Positions 20,401 to 52,535 of a stretch of 64,000 nucleotides of DNA are shown piece after piece. Within the stretch, counting starts at the first letter, position 1; each line of letters starts with the position of its first letter. The position numbers and the translations under genes were made by a program. Location of the stretch: assembly GCA_043721755.1 (NCBI GenBank), contig JAYSQC010000294.1:20839-84838 (forward strand), written 5' to 3'. Origin of the DNA: Schlesneria sp. (lineage in GTDB: Bacteria > Planctomycetota > Planctomycetia > Planctomycetales > Planctomycetaceae). The notes under the pieces were generated by a model. It did no database searches. It worked only from the letters and a program-made list of their open reading frames with translations, and was not told where the DNA came from.

Positions 20401-23400
20401 TTCGGATTCCACCTCCGAGAATTCCAACAAACTTCTTCGGTCAGATGGCAAGTGGATTCTCGATTCGGGCACCAAGTCTCAATCGACGAGCAGTGCTTTC
20501 GGAGCGTCCTATTCAGGGGCGGGCGGGGTTACGAGTACCGATCCCAGCGGCTCAATCTCGATCTCTTTCGCGGCCTACGGCGGAGACTCGGAAACGGAGA
20601 GTTCGTCGGAGTCACAGATCGTTGGCTCCAACGGAGAATGGCAATCGGGTGGAGGCACGAGGTCGCGCTCCGCAGGGACTGGTAGCGGCTCTTCGTACTC
20701 GGGCAAAGGATCCTATTCGCCCGGCGGTACCGGTGGAACTTCGATGTCCTTCAATATCGAGTTGAGTGGCGGCAGCACTCTCAACGAGACTTTCTCGGAG
20801 GGCGAATCCAATACCGGCACGGGGGGCTGGCAACTCGTGTCTGGTAGCAAGGGGACATCGAACACGAATGATTCCAACGTCGCCTATTCCGGTGCGGGTT
20901 CCTTCCCGATGGGGGCTGCTGGAGCAGGTTCGATCGTCTTCGATGGCACCGATAACCAAAGCAACTCCTTCAGCGAATCCCAACTCGTCGGGACGGGCGG
21001 GACTTGGAATCTGATGGGCGGAGGGAAATCCAACTCAACGTCTTCTGGCCACAATTTCGTGCTCTCGGGGACAGACACGACTTCCGGTGGAGGAATCTCG
21101 GTCACGACCAGCTTCGCCGCTCATGACATTTCCTCCAATTCCGAAAGCACCTCGGCCAAGGTTTCGAGTTCCCTCGGGATCGGCCCGAACACTTGGGGCG
21201 ACGAAACCGGCTCCAAATCTCAGTCGGATGATTCCGGATTCACATTTTCGGCTAAGGGGGGCGGAACGCAGTCGCTCGCGATCGCTGGCGGCACCATCAA
21301 TGCCGGAATCCTCATCGACATGAGTAGCACGCAAAGCTCGGTTCACTCGGAGAGCCACGATTTGACGGGCGCAGGCTGGCAACCCATCTCAGGGTCGAGG
21401 TCCGAATCGTCGAGTGAATCGTCGAAGATGCAAATGAACGGAACCGGGACGTATACAAGGGGGACCGTCAACGGAACGCTCAATCTGATGAAGATGGATA
21501 CGTCGTCCAACTCGTCGTTCTCGACGGTTGAGTCACTCGGTTCGACGGGAGCGTGGACATTTACTTCCGGCAATCGCAGTGCGGCATCAGACAATGATTT
21601 TCAGTTCACGTATGCTGGAAGTGGAACCTACACGTATCCCGTCGCCGGTGGTCAGGTGGATGGTGGTCTCACGGAATTTGGAAACGCCGACAATACCGAC
21701 AACCACTCCCAATCCGAGTCGATCAATGCGGCGGGAGATTGGCAATTTGACGTGGGGAGCAAATCTCACTCGGCGGGAAATTCGTCCACGTTCAGTTCAT
21801 CGGGGACGGGCACTTATTCATACGCGGTCACTGGAGGCAGCGTCTCCGGAACAATCAATGAAGCGAATTGGTCGACTTCATCGAATAATGAAACGGAGTT
21901 TAATACTCGCGGTTCGATCGGAGGTTGGAGTTCGCTCGGGACAAAAACGAGCGGGACGGCGGGAGGTTCCACACGAGACTTTGTCGGTTCGGGCAGTTAC
22001 TCCATCAACATCCCCGATCCCACTGACGCGAAAAAGAGTGCGGGAAGTGTGTCAGGGAAAATTGATGAGGGCGGCAGTACGAACTCCAACTCCTCCGAAA
22101 GCTTGGGATGGTCGCTCAGTGCCGGTAATGGCTGGCAGCAAGTTTCGGGTTCACGTTCCCATTCCAATGGAAATAGTTCCAACAGCAAGTCTTCCGGATC
22201 GGGAAGCTACTCGTACACCGATTTGGAGAATGCCAACGGCATCTATCGCAGCGTCTCGCACAGTGGCAAAATCGAGGAAGACGCGTCCAGCGACTCCGGC
22301 AGCTCCGCTTCCGACGCCCTGATGTTTTCGACCGCTGGTGTCTGGGTGCGAACGTCCGGGGGGACATCCAGTTGGAATAGTTCACATCAATCATCAAATT
22401 CCTCGGGAACGGGCAAATACACGTTCAATGTCGGTGGAACATCGGCCAGCCCGGACTACAGGAAACTGAGCGGAGATGTCACCGAGAGCCGTTCGAGCCT
22501 CGACGATCAGAGTTATTCGTTAAGCACGACGTTCACGCCGTTCGGCACCTTTGTGACAACCGGCTCGAAGTCGTCCACCGGAAACTGGAGTGACGACAGC
22601 TCCCTCACTGGTAAGGGATCGTACAGCCGCTCCGTCACAGGCGGCTCCGTCACAGGCACGATCACCAGCCACAACCTCTCACGGGGACAGAGTTCAAATT
22701 CCACGGCCGCTTGGGGCGTCGATGCCTTCGGCGGGTGGGTGTTGCTGAGTGGCGTTGCGAGCCAGGCGTCTGACAGCACGTCCAACGAGGCTTGGAACGG
22801 AACCGGAACGTACTCCACATCCAACTCGGTGACAGACCCCGCCACGGGTAAAACCCTGTCGTCGCAGTCGATGAGTGGAACCGTGACCGACACAGGTTGT
22901 GAAGTATATGACTCCGGTGGCAGCAGTTCCGCCTCTAAAGTGAACTCCAGCGGTGAATGGGAACAGACGTTCGGCTATGCGTCGTCCAGCAAGCGTTCCA
23001 AGAACAACTCAACGATGACAGGCAGCGGAACGTATTCCAACAACGCGTGGGGGGACACGACTCGCAGTGTCTCCGGCACGTTGTCGGAGAACTACAACTC
23101 GTCCGTCGAGTCTGAAAACAGTGAATCGTGGGTCTTTATGAAGGCGGCGTTTGCCAGTGACATGGTTCAGGTGTCCGGTACTCGGAAGCTGATTACCAGC
23201 AGCGGCGGGAGCTTCACCAGTGACGGGAGCGGGACGTACAGCCACGGTCAGGTGCAAAATGGCAAGGTGACTCGCGACTTCAGTACTCGTTCGGGATCGC
23301 ATGGGGAGAGCAAGGTCGAGAGCTTTAGCGGGGGCGGCTGGACGCTCACGTGGTCGGGGAGCGATTCCAGCAGCCAGTCGTCGGACAACTCGTACTCGGG

Positions 23401-26377
23401 GAGCGGGAGTTCAGCCTTCGACCCGCCCGTGATCACCGAGCCGTTCCGCACGTCGGAGTACCATTCCTCGGGCAGCTATGAGGAAGATTTCCAATTTCAG
23501 AATGGCAATAGCAATTCGTCAAACTGGACGGCCGATGCGACCGGCGGCAAAACGACCACGATCACTTCATCCGCCTCCTCTCTGGAGCATCGCCACACGG
23601 CCTCTTCGGGAGGGACTAGCGCCATCCAAGTCACTTGGTACGACATTCCACCGAATCCGTACACTGCGGGTGGCAAGCAGTCCAACACCCAGGAAAACAA
23701 GTCGAACAGCAGCAACAGCGTGACGTGGCATGTGACTTCCAACAGTTTCTCCAATGTCACCATTGATCCCAGCGGAGGAGTCACGGGGGGCGGTCTGCGG
23801 ACCGGTTCGGGCGCTGTCGATGTGGCAGTGAGTCACGGCAATTGGAGCCGGGGCAAGAATGCCGGCCCGATGGACAAGAGTTCGCATACCGCCACGTACG
23901 ACATGACGAACAACTCGCACGACGGCTATGCGTCCGTCACCGCCTCCATCGGCACGTCGATGCCCGCAACGGTAAACATGGTGGACGGAAACAGAACGTC
24001 GTCCATGCATTCCACCCGGGTGGAATTCGACATGATGGGGAACCTCATCGTACCGACTTTCCCAACCCCTCCCGCCAGCACATGGAGCCAGTCCTATCTG
24101 ACGGTCACATTCACAGAAGGGTTCTATACAAATCCGTACTTCGCCCAATCACCGCCCGCTCCCACGTCGCTGCCACCTGCCACGCCCCCTTCCGGAACCG
24201 GAGGACAAGGCGGCGGCGGAGCGATGAATTCAGCGCAAGTCCTGCGTATGAGAGCACTCGCGGTCTACAACTTCGGTGCTTCGTTGTTCACCGCTGACGG
24301 CCGATCCGCAGTTGTGAATGGTGTCAGCAACGCCGCTAGCAACGCCAGGAATGACCCCCTCGGAACGTTAGGCTCCGCCGTCAGAAGTGCCCTTGATCCC
24401 GAAGGCTTGCGAAACGCCTACAACGGTCGGTTGGATGACGGAACACTTCTGACATGGGATGCCAGAATCACAGAAGGAATGCTCGGAGCGTTTGATGCAT
24501 TAACGACGGCTACAGGCATTGGAGGTGCAATCAAAGGTGCCGCCAAAGGCTTGGGCAAGGTCACGTTGAAGGGGCTACGATCCAGCGTCGATGATGTTGC
24601 GAAGGCGACATGTCGAGTTGCGGAAAATGGCGGATGCTTCACCGAGGAGACGGAAGTGATTGTCGGCCCCGGTAACATGACGCTGATTGCCGCTCACACG
24701 GGCGAGGACCGTTCTTCGTTATTGGCGATCCTCGCAGCGGCTGGCGTGCTGGTCATCGGAAGGGTTGCGGCCAGGCGTTTGAAGGGCAGCGACGAGGAAG
24801 AGGAGGGACTGATGGACGAACCCAACGGTCGGCGTTCGTTGAGCAATCTTCGCCTACAGGGACTCGATGGCGAACCCTCGTCGAGCGACACCGAACTGGC
24901 CCCCCGTTGGCAACTCCAACGAAGCGGCACCATCACGCTCGCCACAACAGAGCCCCAGCCCGCGATTGAACCTCTATGGTCAATCACGTTGCCTAGAGCG
25001 ATAAAAGAGGACGCTGCACAAACGCGGACCATGACCATCGAGCATCCTCCGACGATGTCCACAATCGAACCGGTTTCAAGGGAGCGAAGGCAACACGCCA
25101 CGGGCCGAAACCGCTCCCGAAATTGGTTGGCATCGACTGTTGGTCTGCTCTCGTTGCTGATTGCGGGGATGTGTTTGTGGTGTGCGTTGCCGGGATCAGG
25201 ACGGGCCGAGGCCGTCACCTCTCCGTCTGAAGTTCAACAGTACGAGACCAAACGCATTTCGCAGATTGAACCGTTGGATTGGGTGTTGGCCGGGAACCCA
25301 GAAAGGGAGCGGGATATTCAGTTTGGTGAGGTCATTCATCCACACCAGTGGCGGTTGCTGAAGCTGGTCGCTCCGAAGAAATCGGGTGGTACGGCTGAAG
25401 TCCGGATGGCTCGGCCGTTGACGTGGCTGTACTCGCAGTGGCAGTTGAGTCTGGCTGCGCCTGAAGATCCGGATGAAACGGCATCGAATTTTGACTTCGC
25501 AATACACGAAGGCGACGACGATTCCCTCCTAGCGTTTGATGAAGCCCGGTTGGTGGCATTCGACCCGCAGCAGTTGGTGGGCTGCACGATCTACATCTCG
25601 GTCCCCGAGTGCGGGATCGACGGCCACGCTCAGGTCTTGACGGTCGAGGACTGTCCGAACCTCAAGCCGCGACCGGGACCGGGGTATCAACTCGTCACGG
25701 CCACGTTCAAACATCGCGGGGCGAGGGTCGTCGATGTCCATGTCGCGGGACTGTCGGCCCCAATCGGCTCAACACCCAATCACCCGTTCTGGTCCGAGGA
25801 CAAACAGCAATTCGTCCGAGCCGACACCCTACAACCGGGCGAACACCTGCGCCAAGCCGACGGCTCACTGACCACCGTCACCGCCGTCATTCCCCGCCCC
25901 GGCACCCATAACGTCTACAACCTCGAAGTCCATCTCGACCATGTCTACCACGTCGCCAGCAACGGCGTCTTGGTGCATAATGGGTCGCTTCTTGACTGCC
26001 CTTTAACGCAGTGGGTTGATCCAAGAACGATTAATTTTTCGCAACGCAATGTTTCGGCAAACGTGATCGATTACACGTTAGACATGGAAAAGCGAGGAAA
26101 ACACTTCTTTGACAGACCTCTTAATGTCATAGAAACAAACGCTGGACAATTTGTTTCTCTTGACAATAAGCGACTAATGGCTGCTCGAATGACTGGCACT
26201 CAAGTGCCCATTCGGATTGTCAAAGCTAATGAATTTATGAACGGTACTTCTAGGAAGACGTGGGGGCAAGACCTGAACAATAAGCTGAGTGGCCAGAGTC
26301 GCCCTCGTGGATTACCACCAGTTCCAGCTCTGCCGACTCATGGAGGAAGCGGCCTTCCTGGAATTGAATTCGACTGA
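17480..26377 (+). CDS. Giant (2965 aa) S/G/T-rich repeat surface protein with a C-terminal HINT domain and polymorphic toxin tip
   Basis: It begins with a basic leader followed by IEVLEQRCVLSA. A cadherin/Ig-like module follows (LNVLANDF...FDYTVMDADGDSAFATVTVTV). About 2000 aa of degenerate W-containing S/G/T repeats come next. The HINT domain runs from CFTEETEVIV to NGVLVHN, followed by a 131-aa C-terminal domain. Confidence 0.85.
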   Translation: MLLFNWLASVRNRLRVSRYFGSRRERTRPRGRRDVHSRVPAMIEVLEQRCVLSAVGAIDDVFTVSVSGSSQPTQLNVLANDFSSAGGLQLSAVGSAAHGTISIDQSDPTQLPSLIYTADVGFIGVETFDYTVMDADGDSAFATVTVTVGGSNPYSNSGSTTGVLTTATTVIDSYVSQIAGAVSGGVSGGSYSPYDPSWGTGSTTSSPLSSSGTGSSSGGTAGNPENIAGTAFGSGSTSDSGMASSGLPSNSGGPTGGSTYATGFEGGFQSPSDPTGTNPTDPSGYSGGTWPTGGSGGTSGEGTSSSGGTSGSGGNLPGDPGSSGSADDGRFHLEGGYSIDAHTTFISTSGNVSSSTSSTDLINETNTGGENVIFVSVGASTTTLAVSSTEYAGAWTYSETYLFDAMITVTGSDGSVTTDHEWLGYSFVASGDATYSTFSLLIDTGSDLAGTYTEVWSETSTSGSNSGGSLDWTWMMFSQDIIGISNTSDLTTATATGVTTLDIQSSGSFSGQGTYFYDTEGGQVTGAITATGQSSDSLISSAMESQSVSGTWSWATGTATHAGASKTSYSYAGMGGYLIDDNGVNLVGTISESGADRSEDSDTEQGAISTDGKWTWNSGTAKFDGASTSQFSAAGTGTYTSTTQTSTANGTLSEMSGFSSSAAYSGAATLGTGEKWNWSSGGAKLSMGTTSSFSQAGSSTFTDNTSTSTFGGTTADSSGETSSDQVSMTAVLDLEGTWDFNWGLAKSQGSSWSATSYSGKGSYSTQLGTPGQTGGVSGGVSGGTEANGSTSESSGYSAQQSIGQEGKWVWDSGTAGNSSSVTTHSGSSGSGTYSYSLPGGSGVISGTITSGGSSDSNLSVSQTAALDSSGNWSLDKGTLTVSGGASESSSYAGSGAYSRVSADGSMNGTQTESGGSANSSSYTTTANVNTDHKWEWTAGSSAVTNGGSVSSAFSGSGTFSTPTFGGKTTESGSFSDSTSENSNKLLRSDGKWILDSGTKSQSTSSAFGASYSGAGGVTSTDPSGSISISFAAYGGDSETESSSESQIVGSNGEWQSGGGTRSRSAGTGSGSSYSGKGSYSPGGTGGTSMSFNIELSGGSTLNETFSEGESNTGTGGWQLVSGSKGTSNTNDSNVAYSGAGSFPMGAAGAGSIVFDGTDNQSNSFSESQLVGTGGTWNLMGGGKSNSTSSGHNFVLSGTDTTSGGGISVTTSFAAHDISSNSESTSAKVSSSLGIGPNTWGDETGSKSQSDDSGFTFSAKGGGTQSLAIAGGTINAGILIDMSSTQSSVHSESHDLTGAGWQPISGSRSESSSESSKMQMNGTGTYTRGTVNGTLNLMKMDTSSNSSFSTVESLGSTGAWTFTSGNRSAASDNDFQFTYAGSGTYTYPVAGGQVDGGLTEFGNADNTDNHSQSESINAAGDWQFDVGSKSHSAGNSSTFSSSGTGTYSYAVTGGSVSGTINEANWSTSSNNETEFNTRGSIGGWSSLGTKTSGTAGGSTRDFVGSGSYSINIPDPTDAKKSAGSVSGKIDEGGSTNSNSSESLGWSLSAGNGWQQVSGSRSHSNGNSSNSKSSGSGSYSYTDLENANGIYRSVSHSGKIEEDASSDSGSSASDALMFSTAGVWVRTSGGTSSWNSSHQSSNSSGTGKYTFNVGGTSASPDYRKLSGDVTESRSSLDDQSYSLSTTFTPFGTFVTTGSKSSTGNWSDDSSLTGKGSYSRSVTGGSVTGTITSHNLSRGQSSNSTAAWGVDAFGGWVLLSGVASQASDSTSNEAWNGTGTYSTSNSVTDPATGKTLSSQSMSGTVTDTGCEVYDSGGSSSASKVNSSGEWEQTFGYASSSKRSKNNSTMTGSGTYSNNAWGDTTRSVSGTLSENYNSSVESENSESWVFMKAAFASDMVQVSGTRKLITSSGGSFTSDGSGTYSHGQVQNGKVTRDFSTRSGSHGESKVESFSGGGWTLTWSGSDSSSQSSDNSYSGSGSSAFDPPVITEPFRTSEYHSSGSYEEDFQFQNGNSNSSNWTADATGGKTTTITSSASSLEHRHTASSGGTSAIQVTWYDIPPNPYTAGGKQSNTQENKSNSSNSVTWHVTSNSFSNVTIDPSGGVTGGGLRTGSGAVDVAVSHGNWSRGKNAGPMDKSSHTATYDMTNNSHDGYASVTASIGTSMPATVNMVDGNRTSSMHSTRVEFDMMGNLIVPTFPTPPASTWSQSYLTVTFTEGFYTNPYFAQSPPAPTSLPPATPPSGTGGQGGGGAMNSAQVLRMRALAVYNFGASLFTADGRSAVVNGVSNAASNARNDPLGTLGSAVRSALDPEGLRNAYNGRLDDGTLLTWDARITEGMLGAFDALTTATGIGGAIKGAAKGLGKVTLKGLRSSVDDVAKATCRVAENGGCFTEETEVIVGPGNMTLIAAHTGEDRSSLLAILAAAGVLVIGRVAARRLKGSDEEEEGLMDEPNGRRSLSNLRLQGLDGEPSSSDTELAPRWQLQRSGTITLATTEPQPAIEPLWSITLPRAIKEDAAQTRTMTIEHPPTMSTIEPVSRERRQHATGRNRSRNWLASTVGLLSLLIAGMCLWCALPGSGRAEAVTSPSEVQQYETKRISQIEPLDWVLAGNPERERDIQFGEVIHPHQWRLLKLVAPKKSGGTAEVRMARPLTWLYSQWQLSLAAPEDPDETASNFDFAIHEGDDDSLLAFDEARLVAFDPQQLVGCTIYISVPECGIDGHAQVLTVEDCPNLKPRPGPGYQLVTATFKHRGARVVDVHVAGLSAPIGSTPNHPFWSEDKQQFVRADTLQPGEHLRQADGSLTTVTAVIPRPGTHNVYNLEVHLDHVYHVASNGVLVHNGSLLDCPLTQWVDPRTINFSQRNVSANVIDYTLDMEKRGKHFFDRPLNVIETNAGQFVSLDNKRLMAARMTGTQVPIRIVKANEFMNGTSRKTWGQDLNNKLSGQSRPRGLPPVPALPTHGGSGLPGIEFD
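17960..24200 (+). repeat. Protein-level degenerate repeats of about 55-65 aa (G-x-W-x-W/F-x-SG...SGSGTYSY...GG-x-VSGTI...)
   Basis: Recurrent motifs are visible, for example GKWTWNSGTAKFDG, GEKWNWSSGGAKLS, EGKWVWDSGTAGNS, DHKWEWTAGSSAVT, AGDWQFDVGSKSHS and GNGWQQVSGSRSHS. Each is followed by (S/T)G(S/T)GTY(S/T). The copies are diverged at DNA level. Confidence 0.6.
24635..25981 (+). other. PT-HINT-like domain interrupted by a roughly 190-aa insertion carrying two predicted TM helices
   Basis: The N-terminal block is CFTEETEVIVGPG. The insertion contains LLAILAAAGVLVIG and WLASTVGLLSLLIAGMCLWCAL. The domain resumes at YETKRISQIEPLDWVLAGN and ends with the canonical VYNLEV...HVYHVASNGVLVHN. 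Confidence 0.6.
25982..26374 (+). other. C-terminal toxin domain 1 (ParB/Srx-fold-like by pattern)
   Basis: VDPRTINFSQRNVS...DRPLNVIETNAGQFVSLDNKRLMAARMTGTQVPIRIV resembles ParB-N/sulfiredoxin-fold nuclease domains (compare GhhR..Aa). GC content drops visibly from here. Confidence 0.4.
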
Positions 26378-26396
26378 GTAAACAAAGGGGGTCGAA

Positions 26397-26909
26397 GTGA
26401 TTTCGCAAGGCCTTTGGAAAAACGGTGACTGCCTCCAGATCGACTCGGTGCAATTCGGTGATGATTGCGTCGCGATTCTAAAGGTAACTTACCCTCCACA
26501 GTCGTACCTAGACGACCAGAGCATTGTACCGCATGTCTCGATTGAAAAGAGAGAGCCGATATTGGGCGTGATTAGTAACGAGCCTAATCTGCCAAAAGTC
26601 GGACTATGCCCGTCACATTCCGTTGATTTCACATGGAATTCTGAAATTCTTCGATGCCAAGTCGGGGAGGGTAGTGGCTGGGACGGATTCGGATACGTAG
26701 CTGTTTCTCGGGTCGCAGATGACTATTTATACTGGGTGGCATTTTTTGAAAGATCAAATGGTTTCGACCAGGTGTACATTAAAGACAACTCTGTGATTGC
26801 GACTCCGTACCTCGGCTGGGAATATGTATTCGACCTTGCCGCACCGGAGCGAATAAAGATCAGAACGAGCAAATCAAAGGAGACAGATCAAACGGGTCAG
26901 GGGTCGTAA
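26397..26909 (+). CDS. Candidate immunity protein for toxin tip 1
   Basis: The GTG start lies 20 nt after the toxin stop and follows AAAGGGGG. The ORF is 170 aa, lower in GC and has no signal peptide. The assignment rests on position only. Confidence 0.45.
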   Translation: MISQGLWKNGDCLQIDSVQFGDDCVAILKVTYPPQSYLDDQSIVPHVSIEKREPILGVISNEPNLPKVGLCPSHSVDFTWNSEILRCQVGEGSGWDGFGYVAVSRVADDYLYWVAFFERSNGFDQVYIKDNSVIATPYLGWEYVFDLAAPERIKIRTSKSKETDQTGQGS

Positions 26910-26945
26910 ATCTGGAATGTCACATCGCAGCAAACTGGGGAGCGG

Positions 26946-27000
26946 AAAAGGGGACAGGTCCATATTAGGCATTGCGGCTTATATGGACCTGTCCCCTTTT
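26946..27000. terminator. Perfect 20-bp stem / 15-nt loop hairpin
   Basis: AAAAGGGGACAGGTCCATAT-N15-ATATGGACCTGTCCCCTTTT lies 37 nt after the 26909 stop, and the 3' arm ends in TTTT. Confidence 0.6.
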
Positions 27001-27165
27001 GGCTCCCGCTAAATTGCACTCAGAACTGCCTGTTGTATCGACTGGCTGGGCACAGGCAAACGCATTCTTCAAGGCTGAGCGTAGGCAAGTTAACATCGGT
27101 CTTGGTAATGGAAATGCTCTGAGTATTTTTAACAATAACATTGCAGGTTTTAATCAGGTGCCGCG

Positions 27166-27681
27166 ATGACAGACGAAGAAAAAGAGCTTGCGCTTTCACT
27201 TTCTGCCGACGAAATAACCGAGGCCGACTTTTTGCGGATTCTACAAATCGGTCGTGCGGATGTACGCCAGCTAACCTTGCGATTTCTTGAGGAGTCGCTG
27301 GCAACATTGGATCCTGAAGGTGTCGAGTGCGCATTGAACGTTGGTTTTGTGTTCGGCTTCGACACTGAGCATCTCGATGTATTGAGTGCGCTGTCAGATT
27401 CTGAGTGGCATTTCCGTCACGAAGATGTTGTCGAGGCGTTAAGTGATTTACAGTCGCCCCGTACAGTAGATACGTTGTTCAGAGCTGCATTACACCCACA
27501 TGGCTATCTTGATTATGACGAAAGTCGTTCGTTATCAATAAAAGCAATTTGGGCAATCAGCTGTGTTGCAACCCCTTCTGCAATTGAGGCGCTTCACAAA
27601 CTGGCTGCTTCCGATATTGTGCGTGTAGCTGAAGAAGCAAAGCGACATTTGGAGCAGGCCAAAGGAGACGGGACTCTTTGA
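27166..27681 (+). CDS. HEAT-repeat-like protein (immunity-like)
   Basis: The 171-aa protein looks all-helical and has HEAT-like segments (VVEALSDLQSPRTVDTLFRAAL; AIEALHKLAASDIVRVAEEAKRHL). It sits between two toxin modules. Confidence 0.45.
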   Translation: MTDEEKELALSLSADEITEADFLRILQIGRADVRQLTLRFLEESLATLDPEGVECALNVGFVFGFDTEHLDVLSALSDSEWHFRHEDVVEALSDLQSPRTVDTLFRAALHPHGYLDYDESRSLSIKAIWAISCVATPSAIEALHKLAASDIVRVAEEAKRHLEQAKGDGTL

Positions 27682-28931
27682 ATCGCTTAAAAGGGCAACA
27701 CTACAGGAGCCGAAGCCGCTCCCGAAGTTGGTTGGCATCGACTGTTGGTTTGCTCTCGTTGCTGATTGCGGGGGCGTGCTTATGGTGTGCTTTGCCGGGA
27801 TCAGGGCGGGTGGATGCCGTCACCACGCCGTCTGAAGTTCGGCAATACGAGACCAAACGCATCTCACGGATCGTCCCGTTCGACTGGGTGCTGGCGGGAA
27901 ACCCGGAAGGGGAGCGTGATCTTCAGTTTGGCGAGGTCATCCATCCTAAGCAGTGGCGACTGCTGAAACTCGTCGCACCGAAAAAGGGTGGCGGCGAGGC
28001 CGATGTGGACATGGCTCGGCCGCTGACGTGGCTCTATTCGCAGAAGCAGGCCGGTGTGACTGTGCCTGATGAGGCCATCGCGGAAGATGAGGACGACGAC
28101 GACTCACTCATCGCGGTCGATGAAGCACAGCTCGCGGCATTCGATCCACGGCAACTCGTCGGCCGCACGATTTACATCTCAGTCCCCGAATGCGGGATCG
28201 ACGGTCACGCGAAGGTGCTGGCGGTTGAGGACTGCCCGAACCTCAAACCGCGACCTGGACTGGAGTATCAACTCGTCACGGCGACGTTCAAACATCGCGG
28301 GGCGAAAGTCGTCGATGTCCATGTCGCGGGGCTGTCAGCTCCGATCGGCTCGACACCCAATCATCCGTTCTGGTCCGAGGACAAACAGCAATTCGTCCGC
28401 GCCGACACCCTGCAACCGGGCGAACACCTGCGCCAAGCCGACGGCTCACTGACCACCGTCACCGCCGTCATTCCCCGCCCCGGTACCCACAACGTCTACA
28501 ACCTCGAAGTCCACCTCGATCACGTCTACCACGTCGCCAACAACGGCGTGTTGGTCCATAATGGGTCCGCGTGGTGGTGTTACCAAAATCGCGTCGCAGA
28601 GACTTTTGGTTTTACGACCGGTCGAGCTTCAACAGAATTCGTCGGTCAGCTGAAGCCCAAAAGATTCGCCGATGGAGTTTCATCTGACATCACTCACGCG
28701 ATGGAGGCCAAACACATCCATAATTGGAGCCGATCGCCATACAATCCAGCGAACATTCACACCACTGTTGGTGCGCAAAGGCAATTTGGAATGGTTTCTC
28801 AAATGAAAGATCTATCGAACGGATTTCCCAAAGTAACCTATTACACAAATCATTCAGGGATGGCTAATCACCTTCGTGATTTGGCGAGTCGCGCAAATCT
28901 CAGAAATGTTTCAGTTGAATTCCACCCCTAA
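27678..28931 (+). CDS. Orphan TM + HINT-C + alternative toxin tip cassette (PD-(D/E)xK-like)
   Basis: About 880 nt are near-identical to 25090-25985 of the giant gene (WLASTVGLLSLLIAG...NGVLVHNGS). A different 122-aa tail follows, with KRFADGVSSDITHAMEAKH (D...E-x-K). The only start in the track is TTG, so independent translation is uncertain. Confidence 0.65.
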   Translation: MNRLKGQHYRSRSRSRSWLASTVGLLSLLIAGACLWCALPGSGRVDAVTTPSEVRQYETKRISRIVPFDWVLAGNPEGERDLQFGEVIHPKQWRLLKLVAPKKGGGEADVDMARPLTWLYSQKQAGVTVPDEAIAEDEDDDDSLIAVDEAQLAAFDPRQLVGRTIYISVPECGIDGHAKVLAVEDCPNLKPRPGLEYQLVTATFKHRGAKVVDVHVAGLSAPIGSTPNHPFWSEDKQQFVRADTLQPGEHLRQADGSLTTVTAVIPRPGTHNVYNLEVHLDHVYHVANNGVLVHNGSAWWCYQNRVAETFGFTTGRASTEFVGQLKPKRFADGVSSDITHAMEAKHIHNWSRSPYNPANIHTTVGAQRQFGMVSQMKDLSNGFPKVTYYTNHSGMANHLRDLASRANLRNVSVEFHP

Positions 28932-28959
28932 TCCGCGAAGTTCGGCAGGTAACAATGGC

Positions 28960-29364
28960 ATGGCTTTACCAAAAGTAAAAACAAGGAAGCCTCTTCTCGG
29001 TTGTTGGCTTTCGGAACTGATTCAAGCTTCCCGTTTTGTCACACTTAATGAAAATGAAACCGCAAGCGACCTTTTGGGAGATTATGTTGAATATGTGAAA
29101 GACCTTTGTACGGCTGGTGATTATCGTTTTCATCCAATGGTTCAGTGGAACTCCGAGTGTGTTACCACTACTGGAACGAGATACGCTGTTTTGCTGTACC
29201 GCGCTGGCACACCATCGCACATTTATGGGTTCTTGGAGGATTTGTGTAAACGCGACGGAAGGCAGATAGCTGCCTTCCGCGACAACCTGTTTGCGGACGG
29301 AACCGGTTTTACTTGCCCGCCATCGGAATGTGTCGTAATCCAGCGTGCATGGAGGCGGAAATAG
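28960..29364 (+). CDS. Candidate immunity protein for toxin tip 2
   Basis: ATG at 28960 lies 29 nt after the orphan toxin stop (MALPKVKTRKPLLGCW...). The ORF is 134 aa and lower in GC. Confidence 0.45.
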   Translation: MALPKVKTRKPLLGCWLSELIQASRFVTLNENETASDLLGDYVEYVKDLCTAGDYRFHPMVQWNSECVTTTGTRYAVLLYRAGTPSHIYGFLEDLCKRDGRQIAAFRDNLFADGTGFTCPPSECVVIQRAWRRK

Positions 29365-29404
29365 GCTGAGCATATCGCAAGTGGGAATACGGGAATCACT
29401 CGCA

Positions 29405-29480
29405 GCAGTAGTTAGCCGCACGATCTACATCTCTGCCTCTGAGTGCGGGGTCAACGGTTGCGAGAAGGTCTTGGCGGCCG
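29405..29480 (+). pseudogene. Third, degenerate HINT-core remnant
   Basis: It translates as RTIYISASECGVNGCEKVLAA, against GCTIYISVPECGIDGHAQVLTV at about 25580-25645 and GRTIYISVPECGIDGHAKVLAV at about 28165-28230. No intact ORF is present. Confidence 0.45.
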
Positions 29481-29502
29481 GTTTCCTTCTCTTCTCGTTT
29501 TC

Positions 29503-31449
29503 CTACGATTCGGCGAGTTCGAGGTAGGGGTCGAGGCCGAGGGAGTGGCACATTTTGGTGCGGGACTTTTCTTGTTGGAGTTGTTGTTTGCGGTGCTTGA
29601 GGTCGCGGGCTTCGACTGTGCGTTGCGTGCGGTGGAAGGTGCGGAGCCAACGGCGGGGGAGTTCGCCTTGGGAGTTGGGGCGGGCTTGAGCTTGGAGGCG
29701 TTTGAGGTGGGCCGGTTTGAGACAGCGGAACAACTCGTCTTCGAGAGAGAGCCAGAACTGGAATGAGCCGGGGTCGCCTTGCCGGGCGGCGCGGCCGACC
29801 AATTGGCGGTCGATACGGCGGCTGGAGTGCATTTCGGTGGCGATGACGTGCAGTCCGCCATTGGCTCTCACGTCTGCGTGCAGGTGAATGTCGGTGCCTC
29901 GTCCGGCCATGTTCGTCGCGATGGTGACTCGTCCCGGCTGACCGGCTCCCGCCACGATCGCGGCTTCCTGTTCGTGGAACAGGGCGTTGAGAATGTGGCA
30001 GTCGATGCCGAGTTCCTTCAGGCTCTGACCCAACGATTCTGAAGCATGAACGGAAGGGGTGCCGATCAGGATGGCTCGACCTGCGTGATGCAGGCGTTCG
30101 ATCTCGGGGATCAGCGCGGTGCGTTTGGCGGCCTGCGTGGCAAAGACGCGGGGCGAGAGACCGCGTCGGATGCAGGGGCGATGCGTCGGGATGACCGTCG
30201 TTTCCGAGTGGTAGGTTTTTTGGAACTCGCGCCGCGCTGGTAGGCCCGTGCCGGTCATCCCGGCCAGATGCTCGTACCGGCGAAAGAACGTCTGCACGGT
30301 GACGCGAGCCGCTTCGCCCGTTTCATCGGTGATCGGCACGCTCTCCTTCGACTCGACCGCCTGATGGAGTCCCGCCTGCCATTTGCGTCCGTCGAGCGTG
30401 CGTCCGGTCCCTTCATCGACGATGGCGATCTCATCGTCGGCGTTGACGACGTAGTCGCGGCCGCGTTGGAACGCGATCTGTGCCCGCAGCGCCTGCTCGA
30501 CGTAGGTGTAAAGCTTCTCCGTTTCAAAGCCACTGAGTAACGACGGCTTGCGGGCGAGGACGATTTTATGAGTTCCTCGATTGGTCAATTCGATGCTCCG
30601 CTGCGCGGGATCGAACTGATAATCGTGACCCGGTTTTAACTGCCGCGAGACCTCTCCACCCCACTTCAAGAGCGCCGTCGTCGCGTCCGAATTCTTGAGA
30701 TTGAGGCCGATAATGAGCGGTGTTCCGGCGTCGTCGATCAACACGCTGTCGGCTTCGTCGATGAGGGCAAAGTAGTGGCCGCGCTGGACCGGTCCCTGCG
30801 GATCGGGAACGTCGTGTGTGAGGAGTGACGGCCGGGGCGGTTCATCCAGTTTCGAGCCGACTTTCAAACGGTCACGCAGGAAATCGAAGCCGATCTCACG
30901 GCTGGTGGCGTACGTGATGTCCCGCCAATACGCGTGCCGCCGTCCTTCCGGTTCGCTCTCAGACAACACACAGCCGACCGTCAGCCCGAGCCGCTCGTAG
31001 ACTGGCCCCATCTGAGCGCAGTCGCGTTCGGCGAGATAGTCGTTGACGGTGACGACATGGCAGCCGCGTCCCGGCAATGCGCGGAGGAATGTGGGAAGGG
31101 TGGCGGTCAGTGTCTTGCCCTCACCTGTCTGCATTTCGGCCAGCCCCCCTTCAAACAGGGCGATGCCGCCCATGATCTGCACGGGGTAGTGTTGCTGGCC
31201 GAGCACTCGTCGCGAGGACTCACGCACCAGCGCATACGCTTCGGGGAGGAGTGACTTCAACGAAGTTCCCGACTTCGCTAGCCAGCGGACTTCGTTCGAC
31301 CGGCTCCGCAATTCCTCGTCGCTGAAATTGGCCAGCGATTCGGACAGCGTGATGACTTGCGAAGCCAGCCCCCGCCAGCGCGAAACTCGCGCCGCCATCG
31401 GCCGTCCGCCAGTCTTGATCCAGTGCCAGAGGGGATTGAGGAGGGACAT
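29503..31449 (-). CDS. Truncated SecA paralog (SecA2-like ATPase, 648 aa)
   Basis: ATG at 31449. SecA motifs are present: QIMGGIALFEGGLAEMQTGEGKTLTATLP, VVTVNDYLAERD, LIDEADSVLIDDAGTPLII, a PPXD-like VDEGTGRTLDGRKWQAGLHQAVESKE, LAGMTGT, MAGRGTDI and RIDRQLVGRAARQGDPG. It lacks the HWD/CTD part of a housekeeping SecA of about 900 aa. Confidence 0.8.
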   Translation of the reverse strand: MSLLNPLWHWIKTGGRPMAARVSRWRGLASQVITLSESLANFSDEELRSRSNEVRWLAKSGTSLKSLLPEAYALVRESSRRVLGQQHYPVQIMGGIALFEGGLAEMQTGEGKTLTATLPTFLRALPGRGCHVVTVNDYLAERDCAQMGPVYERLGLTVGCVLSESEPEGRRHAYWRDITYATSREIGFDFLRDRLKVGSKLDEPPRPSLLTHDVPDPQGPVQRGHYFALIDEADSVLIDDAGTPLIIGLNLKNSDATTALLKWGGEVSRQLKPGHDYQFDPAQRSIELTNRGTHKIVLARKPSLLSGFETEKLYTYVEQALRAQIAFQRGRDYVVNADDEIAIVDEGTGRTLDGRKWQAGLHQAVESKESVPITDETGEAARVTVQTFFRRYEHLAGMTGTGLPARREFQKTYHSETTVIPTHRPCIRRGLSPRVFATQAAKRTALIPEIERLHHAGRAILIGTPSVHASESLGQSLKELGIDCHILNALFHEQEAAIVAGAGQPGRVTIATNMAGRGTDIHLHADVRANGGLHVIATEMHSSRRIDRQLVGRAARQGDPGSFQFWLSLEDELFRCLKPAHLKRLQAQARPNSQGELPRRWLRTFHRTQRTVEARDLKHRKQQLQQEKSRTKMCHSLGLDPYLELAES

Positions 31450-31499
31450 GGGGGAGGGGCTTGGGGAGTCGGGAATGGGGGGACCAAGGAGCCACGGCT

Positions 31500-31529
31500 G
31501 AAGTCCGGCTTTCGGAAAAGGCGGACTTC
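31500..31529. repeat. REP-like palindrome copy (GAAGTCCGGCTTTCGGAAAAGGCGGACTTC)
   Basis: An imperfect copy of the 15628-15657 element, in the intergenic region between the GAF-HlyD and SecA2-like genes. Confidence 0.45.
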
Positions 31530-31547
31530 TCCACCACCGCACGCTCC

Positions 31548-33653: not shown

Positions 33654-33727
33654 GGTGTGACTTGAAAGAGAACGGGAAAAATGTGAGTGGTCTCGGTTGT
33701 TGGCTGACCGTTGGCTTCCGCCGCAGA

Positions 33728-35953: not shown

Positions 35954-35997
35954 GGAATTGGCTTTGGACGTGGAGTATCGACGGTAGGCAAGTGGCC

Positions 35998-36029
35998 GAA
36001 GTCCGGCTTAGCTTTGTCAGCCGGACTTC
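35998..36029. repeat. REP-like palindrome copy (GAAGTCCGGCT-N10-AGCCGGACTTC), with an extra half-site at 36039-36048
   Basis: A perfect 11-bp inverted repeat in the intergenic region between the HlyD adaptor and the M50-HlyD gene. Confidence 0.5.
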
Positions 36030-36086
36030 CTTCGAGGTGCGGACTTCCGCCGATATGGTCTTTTCCCTCTGGCCAAAAGCCAACAG

Positions 36087-37010
36087 CTATTCCGCAAGTT
36101 CAATCACCATCTCGGCCATCAATCCGCCACGCAGGATGTTGTCGCGATTCTCGACTTCCGCCCAGACACGTGTCTCGCGGGTCACGGGATCGACGGTGAC
36201 ATCGACGAACGTCACTCGCCCCACGAACTCTTCGGCGGCGGCGGGAGGACTGAAGTCAGGATCGTTCAGCTTCACACGCACCTTGAGCTTCGGCTTGATC
36301 GCTCGCACATCGGACAGAGCCACACGCCCCTCGATCCGCACGCGGTCGATATTGACCAGCTCCAAAATCGGGTCACCCTGTCGAACGGCTTCGCCGGGAT
36401 GCTTATAGACCCGTGTCACGACGCCCGAGAACGGAGCGATCACCGAATGCGTGGCCAGTTCGGCACGAGCTTGGTCCGCCGTCAGCTTGTTCAACGCGAG
36501 TTCGTTCTCGGCCTGCTCGATCGCCAATACTGTCTTATCGGCCGCGAGCCTTAGCTTTTCGATCTCGAGCTGCGCGACCGCCACCACGGTTTGTTTTCCC
36601 TCCCCCTTCGACTTCGCCGCCGCTTTCTCATTGGCTTCGACGTTCTTCTGATATTCGACCTCGGCCAAGTCGCGGGCTTTCTGGTTGAACCGGACATCGA
36701 CATCGTTCGACGCCTTCTTCTCGGCCACCGCCAAATTGGCGCGAGCCACTTCATCGGCGATCAGCACCACTTGCTGCCTAGCCTCGACCGCGTCTCCTTC
36801 GTGAAATTCGACCGACCTCAACACCCCCGACCGATCGCAGGCTAGAGTCACCTGTCGAATCAACACGATCCGACATTCGGGCACTCGAACATTCTTCGAT
36901 GCCGTCGGCGTGGACGGTTTTTCAGCGGCTGAGGCCACCGAAGTCATGACGACGAACGTGAGTGGCAACAGTAGGGACGGCTTCCGAATGGGCATGGATG
37001 GAGACTTCAA
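36087..37010 (-). CDS. HlyD/MFP-family periplasmic adaptor with a signal peptide
   Basis: The signal-like N-terminus is SLLLPLTFVVMTSVASA. Lipoyl half-motifs are GVLRSVEFHEGDAVEARQQVVLI and APFSGVVTRVYKHPGEAVRQGDPILEL, with a long coiled coil between them. Confidence 0.7.
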   Translation of the reverse strand: MKSPSMPIRKPSLLLPLTFVVMTSVASAAEKPSTPTASKNVRVPECRIVLIRQVTLACDRSGVLRSVEFHEGDAVEARQQVVLIADEVARANLAVAEKKASNDVDVRFNQKARDLAEVEYQKNVEANEKAAAKSKGEGKQTVVAVAQLEIEKLRLAADKTVLAIEQAENELALNKLTADQARAELATHSVIAPFSGVVTRVYKHPGEAVRQGDPILELVNIDRVRIEGRVALSDVRAIKPKLKVRVKLNDPDFSPPAAAEEFVGRVTFVDVTVDPVTRETRVWAEVENRDNILRGGLMAEMVIELAE

Positions 37011-37296
37011 GGGATTGAGATGCGGAAGGGCAATGTGGCGGTCCGTGCGAACCGGATTTCAGAGAGGTCATCGGTGCTCGCGAGACTACTGTCGCCCGTC
37101 ACGGGAGTCGAGCCTCGTTCTGGGCGGCACTGATGCGGTTCGCGATGACAATCCGTCCGCGATCAAGGTAAGCGCCACGCGGAAGGATGTGTCGTGGCGG
37201 TGTCTCGCGATCACAGGCTGTCCGATCAATTCATGTCCCGGCAACGCGCTGCGCGGCAGTTCCCGCCGAAGCTCACCACCTTAACCCACAGCCATA

Positions 37297-43347: not shown

Positions 43348-43355
43348 GGCTAATC

Positions 43356-44030: not shown

Positions 44031-44170
44031 TTACGCATTCGTAAGCTTTCTTTGATTGGAGCAGAGTTACGAGAGGGAGTTCGGCGCCCGTTGCGAAGCC
44101 CTGATGATACGGGTAGACTTATATTAACTTCTCGCCCTTGATGTTTTCATCCTCTTTTGACGAGTCAAAC

Positions 44171-52532: not shown

Positions 52533-52535
52533 TTG

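Follow-up and report, generated by a model that had tools for sequence, protein, structure and literature searches.

A probable polymorphic toxin locus of the pretoxin-HINT type with spare toxin/immunity cassettes on a planctomycete mobile element

Why a giant gene of Schlesneria sp. should be followed by a second copy of part of its own 3' region, joined there to a different C-terminus, is the question raised by the 64,000-nucleotide stretch of DNA analysed here (the window). The best explanation for the locus as a whole, with a probability of roughly 0.7, is a polymorphic toxin system of the pretoxin-HINT type on a planctomycete mobile element. The order of the array is main gene, immunity gene 1, hairpin, remnant of a third toxin tip (tip X), HEAT gene, cassette, immunity gene 2 and HINT vestige; of the spare toxin/antidote cassettes behind the main gene, one is intact and two are decayed.

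The main gene and its interrupted HINT domain

The main polymorphic-toxin gene (17480-26377, + strand, as are all coding features of the array) is an open reading frame of 2965 aa comprising a Big_9 domain, a long stalk, a HINT domain and a toxin tip (tip 1), for which gene callers chose a later start yielding 2591 aa. The product is a giant surface protein with an N-terminal Ig-like Pfam Big_9 domain at residues 59-147 (E 6e-11) and a PT-HINT domain at residues 2735-2834 with a score of 42.2 bits. The corresponding domain of the cassette scored 46.7 bits; both repeat copies thus pass the Pfam cut-off of 27.7 bits. A search of the giant protein for RHS and haemagglutinin domains found neither. 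The locus behaves like the Rhs/CDI-type orphan modules to which the initial annotation had likened it, yet is a member of neither family. The description of the giant protein as planctomycete-like was borne out, the relatives being nearly all from Planctomycetota. The window also encodes a MobF/TrwC relaxase, with closest relatives among relaxases on planctomycete and Runella plasmids, and a ParA-type ATPase. The plasmid location that had been asserted is plausible from these genes but unproven, and the element could instead be integrative.

The HINT domain is split after its first strand by two membrane helices. The putative strand, CFTEETEVIV (24635-24664; block A with the nucleophile Cys1), was assigned from conservation of the CFxxxT motif and from the AlphaFold model, and sits approximately 200 residues ahead of the remaining HINT domain. 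The motif is kept in about 19 long homologues, always ∼30 aa before the first helix. In the model the strand has a pLDDT of ∼90 between two disordered flanks, a value that suggests docking onto the core. The first hairpin helix, TM1 (SSLLAILAAAGVLVIGRVAA; 24713-24772), leads into a charged loop with basic residues at either end. Repeat copy A (25089-25986), inside the main gene, then supplies a basic stretch, TM2 (25124-25189), an inserted beta-rich module, the HINT core from 25247, and the HN|GS end with its Asn codon at 25979-25981. The core was modelled with pLDDT >90; its fold resembles inteins and the intein-like domains of bacteria (2lwy, E 8e-8), and VidaL (6vgv) is among the best matches. 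Across 121 sequences T392 and H395 of block B (TxxH) are invariant and H460-N461 is kept in at least 90%; nor does block B vary in the short family members. In intein chemistry block B works with Cys1 on the N-terminal bond, and cyclisation of the terminal Asn would cut the chain at HN|G and free the tip. Since the +1 residue is Gly, the reaction here would be cleavage rather than splicing; across the family the +1 residue is variable (G, S, A, T, P and K among others). The cassettes start at the second helix and are without the Cys1 strand, and a cassette would probably require the 5' part of the main gene, acquired via recombination, for a complete HINT domain.

Toxin tips, immunity genes and their recurrence

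Tip 1 (25982-26374) is a predicted toxin domain of 131 aa with homologues in the tips of P0031 (39% identity) and L013 (48%). It contains F[ST]Q and DN[KR]RL motifs, as given in a published motif list (PMC3482391). An hhalign comparison with ParB-type tips gave E 0.0019 on the DNKRL/DGHHR segment, and ParB_N matches a tip 1 homologue weakly (E 0.19). AlphaFold returned no confident fold for tip 1 (pLDDT <50) and no significant family match was obtained, and the assignment as a ParB-fold, Tox-ParBL1-like toxin is tentative. The 170-aa product of immunity gene 1 (26397-26909) is the predicted cognate of tip 1. In both L006 and L013 a homologue with 25% identity comes immediately after a tip 1-like toxin (154 aa aligned, E 2e-6, and 150 aa aligned, E 1e-7, respectively).

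Between immunity gene 1 and tip X lies a near-perfect palindrome (26938-27007), single-copy in the window, that is predicted to form a very stable hairpin with a folding energy of -57 kcal/mol (z-score -7.7). A terminator scan did not call the palindrome, the T-run being absent, and it may be either a terminator or a deletion scar. Tip X (27008-27169) retains the last ∼51 codons and the stop codon of a toxin tip; it matches the C-terminal end of a HINT-borne tip in L019 with 51% identity over 51 aa (E 2e-15). Its stop codon overlaps the ATG of a gene of 171 aa (27166-27681), predicted to encode a HEAT-repeat immunity protein whose toxin partner has been lost. The Pfam HEAT_2 score of 24.5 bits is below the cut-off of 27.7; a homologue (38% over 158 aa) lies directly 3' of the tip X-related tip in L019, and HEAT-repeat immunity proteins have been listed for planctomycete toxins (PMC3482391). 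The initial annotation had overlooked the truncated tip, at 27008-27160, paired with this HEAT-like frame.

The intact cassette (27678-28931) encodes 417 aa comprising a basic stretch, TM2 (27729-27794), a HINT domain lacking block A, and tip 2; it contains repeat copy B (27694-28567) with its Asn codon at 28560-28562. Ahead of TM2, translation could begin only at a TTG, which shares nucleotides with the HEAT gene's stop codon. Tip 2 (28563-28928, 122 aa) is a predicted nuclease toxin of the PD-(D/E)xK (restriction-endonuclease) fold. Its profile matches 182 cluster representatives, and among the matches listed the domain ends five or fewer residues from the C-terminus in 132 of 148 re-scanned hits, carried by Rhs, DUF637/haemagglutinin (CdiA-type), PT-TG and HINT proteins. 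The family motif is D...ExK...Q, with D37, K50 (within ExK), W55, S58, N61 and Q80 invariant; tip 2 has an E8Q substitution shared with other family members and keeps the remaining catalytic residues. The AlphaFold model (pLDDT 96) is closest to the type VI secretion effector TseT (9oz0_B, Foldseek E 8.5e-4, TM 0.56), other PD-(D/E)xK nucleases also being similar. Immunity gene 2 (28960-29364, 134 aa from the ATG in a frame open from 28876) is the predicted cognate of tip 2, and its product resembles (26% over 130 aa, pairwise E 2e-12) that of an L023 frame located immediately 3' of the closest tip 2-like toxin (48% identity). The array ends with an 83-bp HINT vestige of a further cassette (TIYISASECGVNG...; 29398-29480), 77-80% identical to 25563-25646, which is cut off on both sides and adjoins the 3' end of a convergent SecA-like gene.

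That a toxin/immunity cassette array stands behind the main gene, as originally proposed, was upheld by the PT-HINT domains of both copies, by the C-terminal position and nuclease fold of the tip 2 domain, and by comparison across the family. The 116 family tips fall into 64 unrelated clusters, and each tip/immunity pair of the locus was found together again in unrelated planctomycete contigs: tip 1 with immunity gene 1 in L006 and L013, tip X with the HEAT frame in L019, and tip 2 with immunity gene 2 in L023. At least two modules are present in 36 of 88 module-holding sequences, a count that takes in the window and also repeat entries of its contigs; the modules are nearly always on one strand and mostly 1.2-2.9 kb apart. 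Where long and short frames are mixed, the long one comes first in seven of eight loci. The closest published analogue is the MafB cassette of Neisseria, which also opens with an intein-like domain (PMC4287609).

The direct repeat and proposed tip replacement

Alignment of copies A and B (∼900 columns) confirmed the direct repeat, of which there is no further copy in the window apart from the short third fragment described above, also seen in the initial annotation. The copies had been called near-identical; blastn gives 83.0% identity, and the alignment gives 82% when all columns are counted and 84% when gapped ones are left out. The indel-rich patch reported within the repeat is present at about 25421-25560. 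Both copies stop at VLVHN|GS as noted earlier, and similarity collapses directly afterwards to 13-33% amino-acid and 31-44% nucleotide identity. The small frames after the tips lie, as had been remarked, in DNA of lower GC (0.43-0.51 versus 0.58-0.63 in the repeat). Identity varies in a mosaic along the repeat: ∼89% around the TM helix, 70-80% across the central part, where third codon positions are 47-60% identical, and 93-97% over the final 250 bp of HINT. That final segment contains exact shared tracts of 71 bp, the longest in the repeat, and 35 bp, both just upstream of the tip junction. The overall dS between copies, 0.52, rises to ∼1.0 in the pre-HINT part and drops to 0.22-0.29 at either end of the repeat; dN/dS, 0.18 in all, falls to 0.035 in the HINT 3' part. 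The divergence of 17% and dS of up to ∼1 therefore do not fit a recent simple duplication, and the proposal that an ∼880-bp duplication created the array was abandoned. On these substitution patterns the copies are old or of separate origin, and were kept under purifying selection.

That copy B is a decaying, functionless duplicate, or the repeat an artefact of assembly, is scarcely credible. The tip X remnant and the vestige are truly decayed, the cassette has only the TTG start, and short-read assemblies end at the 71-bp exact tract. However, all 417 codons are intact with the low dN/dS given above, HINT retains its catalytic residues, as does the nuclease tip apart from E8Q, and immunity gene 2 is intact with its homologue in L023. 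Two ENA contigs, 99.98% and 99.3% identical to the window overall, show zero differences across 24900-29600; two Logan contigs match it at 100% over 25873-28394 and 25873-28220. The array is identical in all five assemblies (the window and four others). Because these contigs agree with the window, the arrangement is no assembly artefact, and the difference of 17% between copies likewise excludes a collapsed or duplicated assembly path.

Arrays of cassettes, and runs of immunity genes left behind, are the signature of tip replacement described in the literature (PMC3482391). We infer that tips are swapped through recombination: if a crossover occurred within the final 250 bp of HINT, tip 2 with immunity gene 2 would become attached to the main stalk and tip 1 would be deleted. 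The earlier assertion that the modules can be exchanged by homologous recombination was too strong as worded, the array being unchanged in the five assemblies. Two metagenome scans found no recombinant junctions, the parental locus itself being absent there too. With the copies 83% identical and no exact tract longer than 71 bp, recombination would moreover be inefficient.

Alternative roles for the cassette protein

A silent reserve is not the sole reading of the cassette. About 56 short family members start just before the helix, most with an ATG and a positively charged segment, and most look like real signal-anchor genes. The 417-aa frame may likewise be an independent gene, its product anchored in the membrane, cut by its own HINT at HN|G and releasing tip 2 without the giant gene. 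The intact frame and its dN/dS agree with this, the TTG overlapping the HEAT stop would permit translational coupling, and some MafB-CT cassettes also have start codons (PMC4287609). We nevertheless consider independence unlikely. The cassette in the window has a TTG rather than an ATG before the helix, and its product lacks the first HINT strand with Cys1, which AlphaFold places confidently; invariance of block B in short forms is hard to explain if it never meets that strand. No route to another cell is evident for a 400-aa protein of the inner membrane, and the low dN/dS may date from earlier residence in a main gene.

It is quite improbable, on the evidence at hand, that the HINT domain is naturally split, a carrier's CF strand and TM1 associating within the membrane with the cassette protein so that the fold is completed in trans. 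Atypical split inteins such as VidaL are cut after the first strand, which is where the hairpin is inserted here, and the invariant block B of short forms together with the fold match to VidaL is in accord with a split. With basic residues flanking its loop, the hairpin would place the two parts of HINT on one side of the membrane. Six related loci (L005, L007, L009, L022, L044 and L064) have carrier and cassette as separate genes, the carrier ending after the CF strand, TM1 and a conserved loop motif and the next frame starting just before TM2. These split frames come from draft metagenome bins, however, and could be frameshifts or scars of cassette insertion. The main gene here is fused with its own complete HINT, leaving a free CF strand only after chain cleavage; the docking of that strand is judged from pLDDT; and the +1 residue, Gly here and variable in the family, excludes true trans-splicing for most members. 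If the HINT domain were split in this way, the same carrier could take up different tips as proteins, with no change to the DNA.

The preferred reading remains a pretoxin-HINT polymorphic toxin system. Its spare-cassette layout is already known from bacterial warfare genes; the unexpected part is the two-helix membrane hairpin interrupting the HINT domain. The array would document past tip replacement and also provide the substrate for it. The small gene after each tip would encode a cytoplasmic immunity protein guarding sister cells, and the immunity genes that have been kept would guard the cell against relatives still bearing the old tips.

Extent, age and assembly of the repeat

A direct repeat connects nucleotides 25089-25986, which lie in the 2965-aa ORF of the giant gene (17480-26377), with nucleotides 27694-28567 in a downstream 417-aa ORF (27678-28931), the latter hereafter called the cassette. 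The coordinates and anatomy of the repeat described in the initial annotation were confirmed by blastn and by global and protein alignments. The protein alignment extends from the basic stretch preceding the membrane helix to VLVHN-GS, the common end point that had been proposed for both copies, and no similarity was detected beyond it; amino acid identity decreases from 100% to about 30% or less directly past the boundary between VLVHN and GS. The copies in the giant gene (copy A) and the cassette (copy B) are not near-identical as had been described. Identity was 83.0% over 901 columns by blastn, and 82% (all columns) or 84% (ungapped) in the global alignment, most of its 24 gap columns falling within a single acidic patch. 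The third HINT fragment is present at 29398-29480 and is 77-80% identical to 25563-25646. The lower GC noted for the small ORFs behind the tips was also borne out, the tips and their downstream ORFs having a GC content of 0.43-0.51 compared to ∼0.60 for the repeat.

Identity between the copies is a mosaic of ∼89% in the helix, 70-80% in the middle and 93-97% in the last 250 bp. In the middle of the repeat third codon positions are 47-60% identical, with amino acids 80-87% identical. The overall dS between A and B was 0.52 with a dN/dS of 0.18 (Nei-Gojobori), and by region dS was ∼1.0 in the pre-HINT part and 0.22-0.29 at both ends of the repeat. The divergence and the dN/dS ratio indicate that the copies are old or derived from different lineages and that both evolved as coding sequence, results that do not support the recent ∼880-bp duplication initially proposed. 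The low dS at the ends is compatible with later gene conversion or crossovers.

An assembly artefact as the source of the repeat was ruled out by the agreement of ENA and Logan contigs with the window. No position in 24900-29600 differs between the window and either of two ENA metagenome contigs, whose overall identity to it is 99.98% and 99.3%, and two Logan contigs were 100% identical over 25873-28394 and 25873-28220. The array in these four other assemblies is identical to that of the window and displays no population variation. Both ENA contigs start within the giant gene with the first 50-137 bases unaligned to the window (about 18206-18343), a pattern suggestive of assembly having broken off at a repeat within the stalk. 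Contig L002 differs from the window at 146 positions located almost entirely in patches at 31500-32000 and 33500-35500. Both patches fall inside the adaptor and M50 peptidase genes and leave the toxin array unchanged, a pattern that looks like imported recombination tracts.

A HINT domain interrupted by a membrane hairpin

The PT-HINT model (PF07591, gathering cut-off 27.7 bits) matched the main copy with 42.2 bits and the cassette copy with 46.7 bits. The last 592 residues of the main protein were modeled with AlphaFold from an alignment of 121 sequences, and pLDDT values were >90 throughout the HINT core. The modeled fold matched bacterial intein-like domains and inteins with E values of 8e-8 to 1e-5, including 2lwy (E 8e-8), 6y75 and the intein VidaL (6vgv). 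The block B motif TxxH (T392, H395) is invariant in the 121 sequences and the terminal H460-N461 is kept in at least 90% of them; both copies in the window contain TxxH and the terminal HN. In intein chemistry the terminal Asn cyclises and thereby breaks the bond that follows it. Since the +1 residue is Gly in both copies, release of the tip would be expected and not splicing.

Long members of the family have a constant order of elements in which the motif CF[VT]x[DE]T.V.V is followed ∼30 residues on by a first membrane helix (TM1), a Lys/Arg-rich stretch, a variable acidic loop, a second basic stretch, a second membrane helix (TM2) and the remainder of HINT. The CF motif was found at this constant spacing before TM1 in ∼19 long ORFs among the 126 HINT modules of the window and the loci retrieved (repeat retrievals counted). 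In the giant gene the CF strand (CFTEETEVIV) is encoded at 24635-24664, TM1 at 24713-24772 and TM2 at 25124-25189. The motif has the form of the Hint block A and would contain the putative nucleophile Cys1. In the AlphaFold model the CF strand has a pLDDT of ∼90 with both flanks <50, as would be expected of a strand predicted to dock on the HINT core. With the inserted module removed in silico, the match to the PT-HINT profile covered positions 9-136 and the segment following TM2 (TKRISQIEPLDWVLAGNP) aligned to positions 9-30. When the CF strand was spliced in silico onto the HINT core, positions 1-8 of the Pfam profile still went unmatched; thus, the assignment of the strand to block A is drawn from its motif conservation and pLDDT. 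The basic residues on both sides of the loop suggest, by the positive-inside rule, that the hairpin loop is cytoplasmic, with both parts of HINT on the outer side of the membrane. A limited literature search returned no description of a membrane hairpin inside a pretoxin HINT domain.

The repeat begins just upstream of TM2, as do the short ORFs of the family generally, and the cassette products are therefore devoid of the first strand and Cys1. Cys1 is encoded in the main gene only, ∼200 residues upstream and beyond the membrane hairpin. A homologue search with the cassette protein returned 194 proteins, those with a source name belonging to Planctomycetaceae that include Gimesia aquarii and Polystyrenella longa. 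In most, 350-450 aa in length, a basic stretch and a single helix are followed by ∼240 residues up to HN and then by a 100-140-residue tip. With one genome scanned per species, 165 stretches encoding relatives were identified, from which 77 loci were kept, nearly all from Planctomycetota (Planctomycetaceae, Pirellulales, Gemmatales, Phycisphaeraceae and Kuenenia); the best relative among GTDB species representatives is 39-62% identical. Among 88 module-holding sequences, a number that takes in the window and repeat retrievals of its contigs, 36 carry two to five modules; with few exceptions these share a strand, and most are spaced at 1.2-2.9 kb. The long ORF stands first in seven of the eight arrays that combine long and short ORFs (loci L003, L011, L038, L055, L062, L075 and L078), the exception being L004. 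Further arrays with annotated neighbors were found in G. aquarii, in P. longa and in a bin encoding a 5633-aa cadherin/Big_9 protein.

It is unlikely that the cassette ORF encodes an autonomous short toxin. Most short members of the family possess an ATG and a basic stretch, and in the window the cassette overlaps the preceding HEAT-like gene in a TTGA; however, the missing first strand and Cys1 speak against independent function, as do the invariance of block B in the short forms and the fact that no ATG precedes the helix of the window cassette. A different proposal derives from six loci in which a carrier ORF ends after CF-TM1 and the loop motif (L/I)D.(L/V)F...W and a separate ORF starts just before TM2 (L005, 9456-11191; L007, 6861-9134; L009, about 3100-4669; L022; L044; L064). 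In two of the six a single in-frame stop separates the carrier and cassette frames, 15-24 nt 3' of the carrier's own stop. The hairpin might accordingly be a natural split site, with cassette proteins made separately and docking onto the CF-strand/TM1 stub of the giant protein or of a separately encoded carrier, so that one stalk is armed with alternative toxins at the protein level. If true, tips would be loaded in a manner like that of split inteins, in place of or besides recombination of DNA. The comparison is closest with atypically split inteins having a very short N-fragment, such as VidaL, in which the Hint fold is likewise broken right after the first strand and which ranked among the top fold matches; in the six relatives the two parts also reside on separate ORFs. 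Splicing by split inteins involves N- and C-fragments on separate polypeptides and a Cys, Ser or Thr at +1. In contrast, the parts encoded in the window form one polypeptide joined by the membrane hairpin and splicing is not expected with Gly at +1, and across the family the +1 residues exclude true splicing in most members. This proposal is considered distinctly improbable, slightly more so than an autonomous toxin. According to the reading preferred here, the hairpin-interrupted HINT domain and the cassettes starting at the second helix are a structural variant within a well-known kind of system.

Toxin tips and cognate immunity genes

The 116 tips of the family grouped into 64 clusters (E below 1e-3), an undercount because one cluster is joined solely by a shared linker. 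An entire linker (GDPCPDAEALFNPLLRT) is common to some tip subfamilies. A Cys is found 2-6 residues past the terminal Asn in most tips irrespective of the toxin type (GSLLDC, GSAWWC, SGPC, GDPCP, ACxx...), the codons in the window being 25997-25999 and 28578-28580. Searches of Pfam, NCBIfam and PDB sequences with the tip of the main protein (tip 1, 25982-26374), the tip of the cassette (tip 2, 28563-28928) and the three small ORFs yielded no significant match, and word-indexed homologue searches with tip 1 or tip 2 alone returned nothing.

Tip 2 is a predicted nuclease toxin of the restriction-endonuclease, or PD-(D/E)xK, fold, based on its D...ExK motif, a model of high confidence and a fold match to the type VI secretion (T6SS) effector TseT. 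A profile composed of tip 2 and two relatives identified 182 cluster representatives among 1.84 billion proteins in a full HMMER search. Among the matches listed, the domain lies at most 5 residues from the C-terminus in 132 of the 148 hits that were re-scanned. Its carriers, 58 of which were scanned, contain PT-HINT (13), RHS (8), DUF637/Fil_haemagg (3) and PT-TG (2). One carrier, the 2542-aa protein P0265, contains a SecA-like segment (residues 713-1314) that is 24% identical to the SecA-like protein encoded in the window, which may be due to chance or a gene-call fusion. Alignment of 30 members revealed no variation at D37, K50, W55, S58, N61 or Q80, and little if any at E48 of the E48-x-K50 motif. 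At E8, the first acidic position, the window copy has Gln, as do at least two other members. The model based on this alignment had a pLDDT of 96, and the best Foldseek match was TseT (PA3907) with its immunity protein (9oz0_B, E 8.5e-4, TM 0.56), also retrieved as 7dym. Weaker matches (E 0.07-0.5) were obtained to YaeQ, Avs4, arenavirus cap-snatching endonucleases and R2 retrotransposon proteins, which together with TseT we take to have the PD-(D/E)xK fold in common, TseT presumably as a member of Tox-REase-5. The TseT of Pseudomonas aeruginosa is an antibacterial effector neutralised by a dedicated immunity protein (TsiT), and tip 2 is likewise paired with a predicted cognate immunity protein. 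The two differ in that TseT has only 15% sequence identity to tip 2 and is delivered by a T6SS as opposed to a HINT-tipped giant protein; moreover, no relationship of immunity protein 2 to TsiT emerged from the comparisons made. The curated Tox-REase models of Pfam gave no match to tip 2 at E values up to 10, which places the domain family outside Pfam coverage. One relative of tip 2 reached Tox-REase-2 at an E value of 0.065 only.

Homologues of tip 1 occur on other cassettes, those of protein P0031 (39% identity) and locus L013 (48%). The residues F-S-Q and D-N-K-R-L are conserved in three aligned members and also in the L013 tip. In the hhalign comparison of a tip 1 profile with the ParB-type tips of the family, DNKRL aligned with DGHHR (E 0.0019, 32 columns), and the Pfam ParB_N model matched one tip 1 homologue with an E value of 0.19. 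The survey of polymorphic toxins describes Tox-ParBL1 as having a ParB fold with a conserved [ST] and a [NT][RT][RT] motif (PMC3482391), a signature to which F-S-Q and D-N-K-R-L of tip 1 would correspond. Tip 1, for which the AlphaFold model of the main C-terminus had a pLDDT of <50, is tentatively assigned to a Tox-ParBL1-like ParB fold on the basis of these sequence comparisons.

The small ORFs are predicted cognate immunity genes, judged by their pairing with the same tips in unrelated contigs. Homologues of the ORF at 26397-26909 (immunity 1) are located directly behind tip 1-like toxins in the unrelated loci L006 (E 2e-6) and L013 (E 1e-7). The product of the ORF at 28960-29364 (immunity 2) is 26% identical over 130 aa (pairwise E 2e-12) to that of an ORF of locus L023 which sits directly behind the closest tip 2-like toxin (48% identity). 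The ORFs following P0007 and P0008, which were considered as homologues of immunity 2, were not significant (hhalign E 0.087), and the link was made via L023 instead. In locus L019 a homologue of the HEAT-like ORF at 27166-27681 (38% identity, 158 aa) immediately follows a different HINT-borne tip. The C-terminal 51 residues of this tip align with the translation of 27008-27160 at 51% identity (E 2e-15), which indicates that the window retains the 3' end of a third toxin gene (tip X) and, intact, the corresponding predicted immunity gene. The stop codon of tip X overlaps the ATG of the HEAT ORF. HEAT-repeat immunity proteins are listed for planctomycete toxins, and strings of leftover immunity genes are interpreted as traces of earlier tip replacements in the survey of Zhang et al. 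(PMC3482391). A 70-bp near-perfect palindrome (26938-27007; -57 kcal/mol, z-score -7.7) that is single copy in the window separates immunity gene 1 from the tip X remnant and abuts the point at which the latter is truncated; it could be the terminator of the main operon or the scar of a deletion. A promoter and terminator scan gave results not above chance.

Mode of action, genomic context and related systems

To the observed anatomy, domain identities, polymorphism and co-variation of tips with immunity genes a mechanism may be added in which the giant protein would present the toxin, HINT would free the tip between HN and G, the nuclease tip would act in the cytoplasm of the target cell and the protein encoded downstream of the tip would protect kin. 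The array may have been built by successive replacement of tips and could be reused for further replacement. The 3' part of HINT, in which the copies match exactly over 71 bp (from 25832) and over 35 bp (from 25784), is probably the best crossover substrate. A crossover there would join the stalk to tip 2 and immunity 2, with loss of the HEAT gene as well as of tip 1 and immunity 1. Among the window and the four other assemblies, which agree across the array, no recombinant was present. Two metagenome scans for the main-type HINT joined to tip 2 gave no match and were uninformative, the parental locus being absent as well.

The window also encodes a MobF/TrwC relaxase (3148-5817), closest to plasmid relaxases of Runella, a planctomycete (K2D), Paludisphaera and Singulisphaera, and a ParA-type ATPase (10010-10642). 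These genes make the plasmid location given in the initial annotation plausible; the locus may instead be part of an integrative element. Adjoining the array is a cluster (29503-39432) encoding, beside a short SecA-like ATPase of 684 aa, two adaptors (the first long and of the HlyD type), a PqqD/M50 peptidase and a TolC-like OEP protein. The cluster resembles an export system of unusual type. As a dedicated exporter it was rejected: no homologue of any of its genes was found within 10 kb of ∼80 related loci, which makes a conserved link to the toxin family unlikely. Three likely secreted hydrolases are encoded in a row (41656-48632), namely an M4 thermolysin-like peptidase, an endonuclease/exonuclease/phosphatase-family protein and a fusion of a DNA/RNA non-specific endonuclease with a trypsin-like protease. 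Defence-type genes at 49980-55037 and 58095-62877 encode a kinase/ORC-CDC6-like NTPase, DruA (Druantia), a Schlafen/AlbA_2 protein and a UvrD-like helicase. The N-terminus of the giant protein (17480-17650) consists of an Arg-rich segment followed by EVLEQRCVLSA, which we take to resemble the N-terminal motif of many large planctomycete surface proteins, with no classical hydrophobic signal peptide.

Abrupt C-terminal divergence and co-variation of tips with immunity genes, features of polymorphic toxins in the sense of Zhang et al. 2012, were both found at this locus, and the occurrence of the same tip on different scaffolds was found for tip 2. The locus belongs to the class of HINT-processed polymorphic toxins (PMC3482391) and is closest to class 1 MafB of Neisseria (Jamet et al. 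2015, PMC4287609). As in that system, alternative C-terminal cassettes, all provided with their own immunity gene, stand behind a complete toxin gene, the 5' end of the mafB-CT cassette is an intein-like (HINT) domain that constitutes the common region, and a start codon is present in some cassettes and absent from others (PMC4287609). Replacement in MafB was inferred from genome comparison to proceed by recombination (PMC4287609). The systems differ in phylum and presumed export route. Whereas the N-terminus of MafB is a signal peptide and DUF1020 of a few hundred residues, a 2800-aa Ig-repeat stalk is found here; furthermore, no membrane hairpin is described in the intein-like domain of MafB, and the cassettes of the window begin inside HINT at the second helix, devoid of block A. 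The HINT toxins of Zhang, de Souza, Anantharaman, Iyer and Aravind 2012 also have HINT directly before a hypervariable C-terminal toxin and arrays of stand-alone cassettes with adjacent immunity genes, and planctomycetes are listed for many HINT-linked toxin families (PMC3482391). The passages compared here contain no mention of a hairpin inside HINT or of cassettes starting at a membrane helix, and the derived Pfam models do not match tip 1, tip 2 or tip X.

The array had been described as an assembly of Rhs/CDI-type orphan modules. It does work like such arrays, with the defining RHS and haemagglutinin repeats missing. In Rhs and CdiA orphan modules as described (Poole et al. 2011, PMC3150448; Koskiniemi et al. 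2014, cited in PMC4287609), displaced C-terminal toxin/immunity pairs likewise lie 3' of the main gene, a short conserved segment just before the variable tip serves as the recombination handle and orphan immunity genes are kept. The tip 2 domain family is also shared with Rhs and CdiA-type proteins. In contrast to these, the giant protein is without YD/RHS repeats, PxxxxDPxGL, haemagglutinin repeats, VENN or a TpsB partner, and the common segment is a whole autoprotease domain plus membrane helix (∼290 codons) and not a short motif. The RHS_repeat, RHS and TEN_YD-shell models gave no match in the 2965-aa protein, in which the tip boundary is VLVHN; neither did Fil_haemagg, DUF637 or TPS, and no Omp85-type gene was found among the scanned neighbors.

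Overall, the initial annotation proved largely correct, and the array is a planctomycete example, plausibly plasmid-borne, of well-described systems of bacterial competition. It supplies three new candidate toxin/immunity pairs outside Pfam coverage, one of which includes a widespread predicted nuclease domain (182 cluster representatives) also found on Rhs and CdiA toxins. Should the hairpin be a functional split site, it would represent a new route of warhead exchange and a natural membrane-tethered split Hint domain of possible use in protein engineering, and would bear on the delivery of toxins by planctomycetes, for which the secretion of giant proteins is poorly understood.
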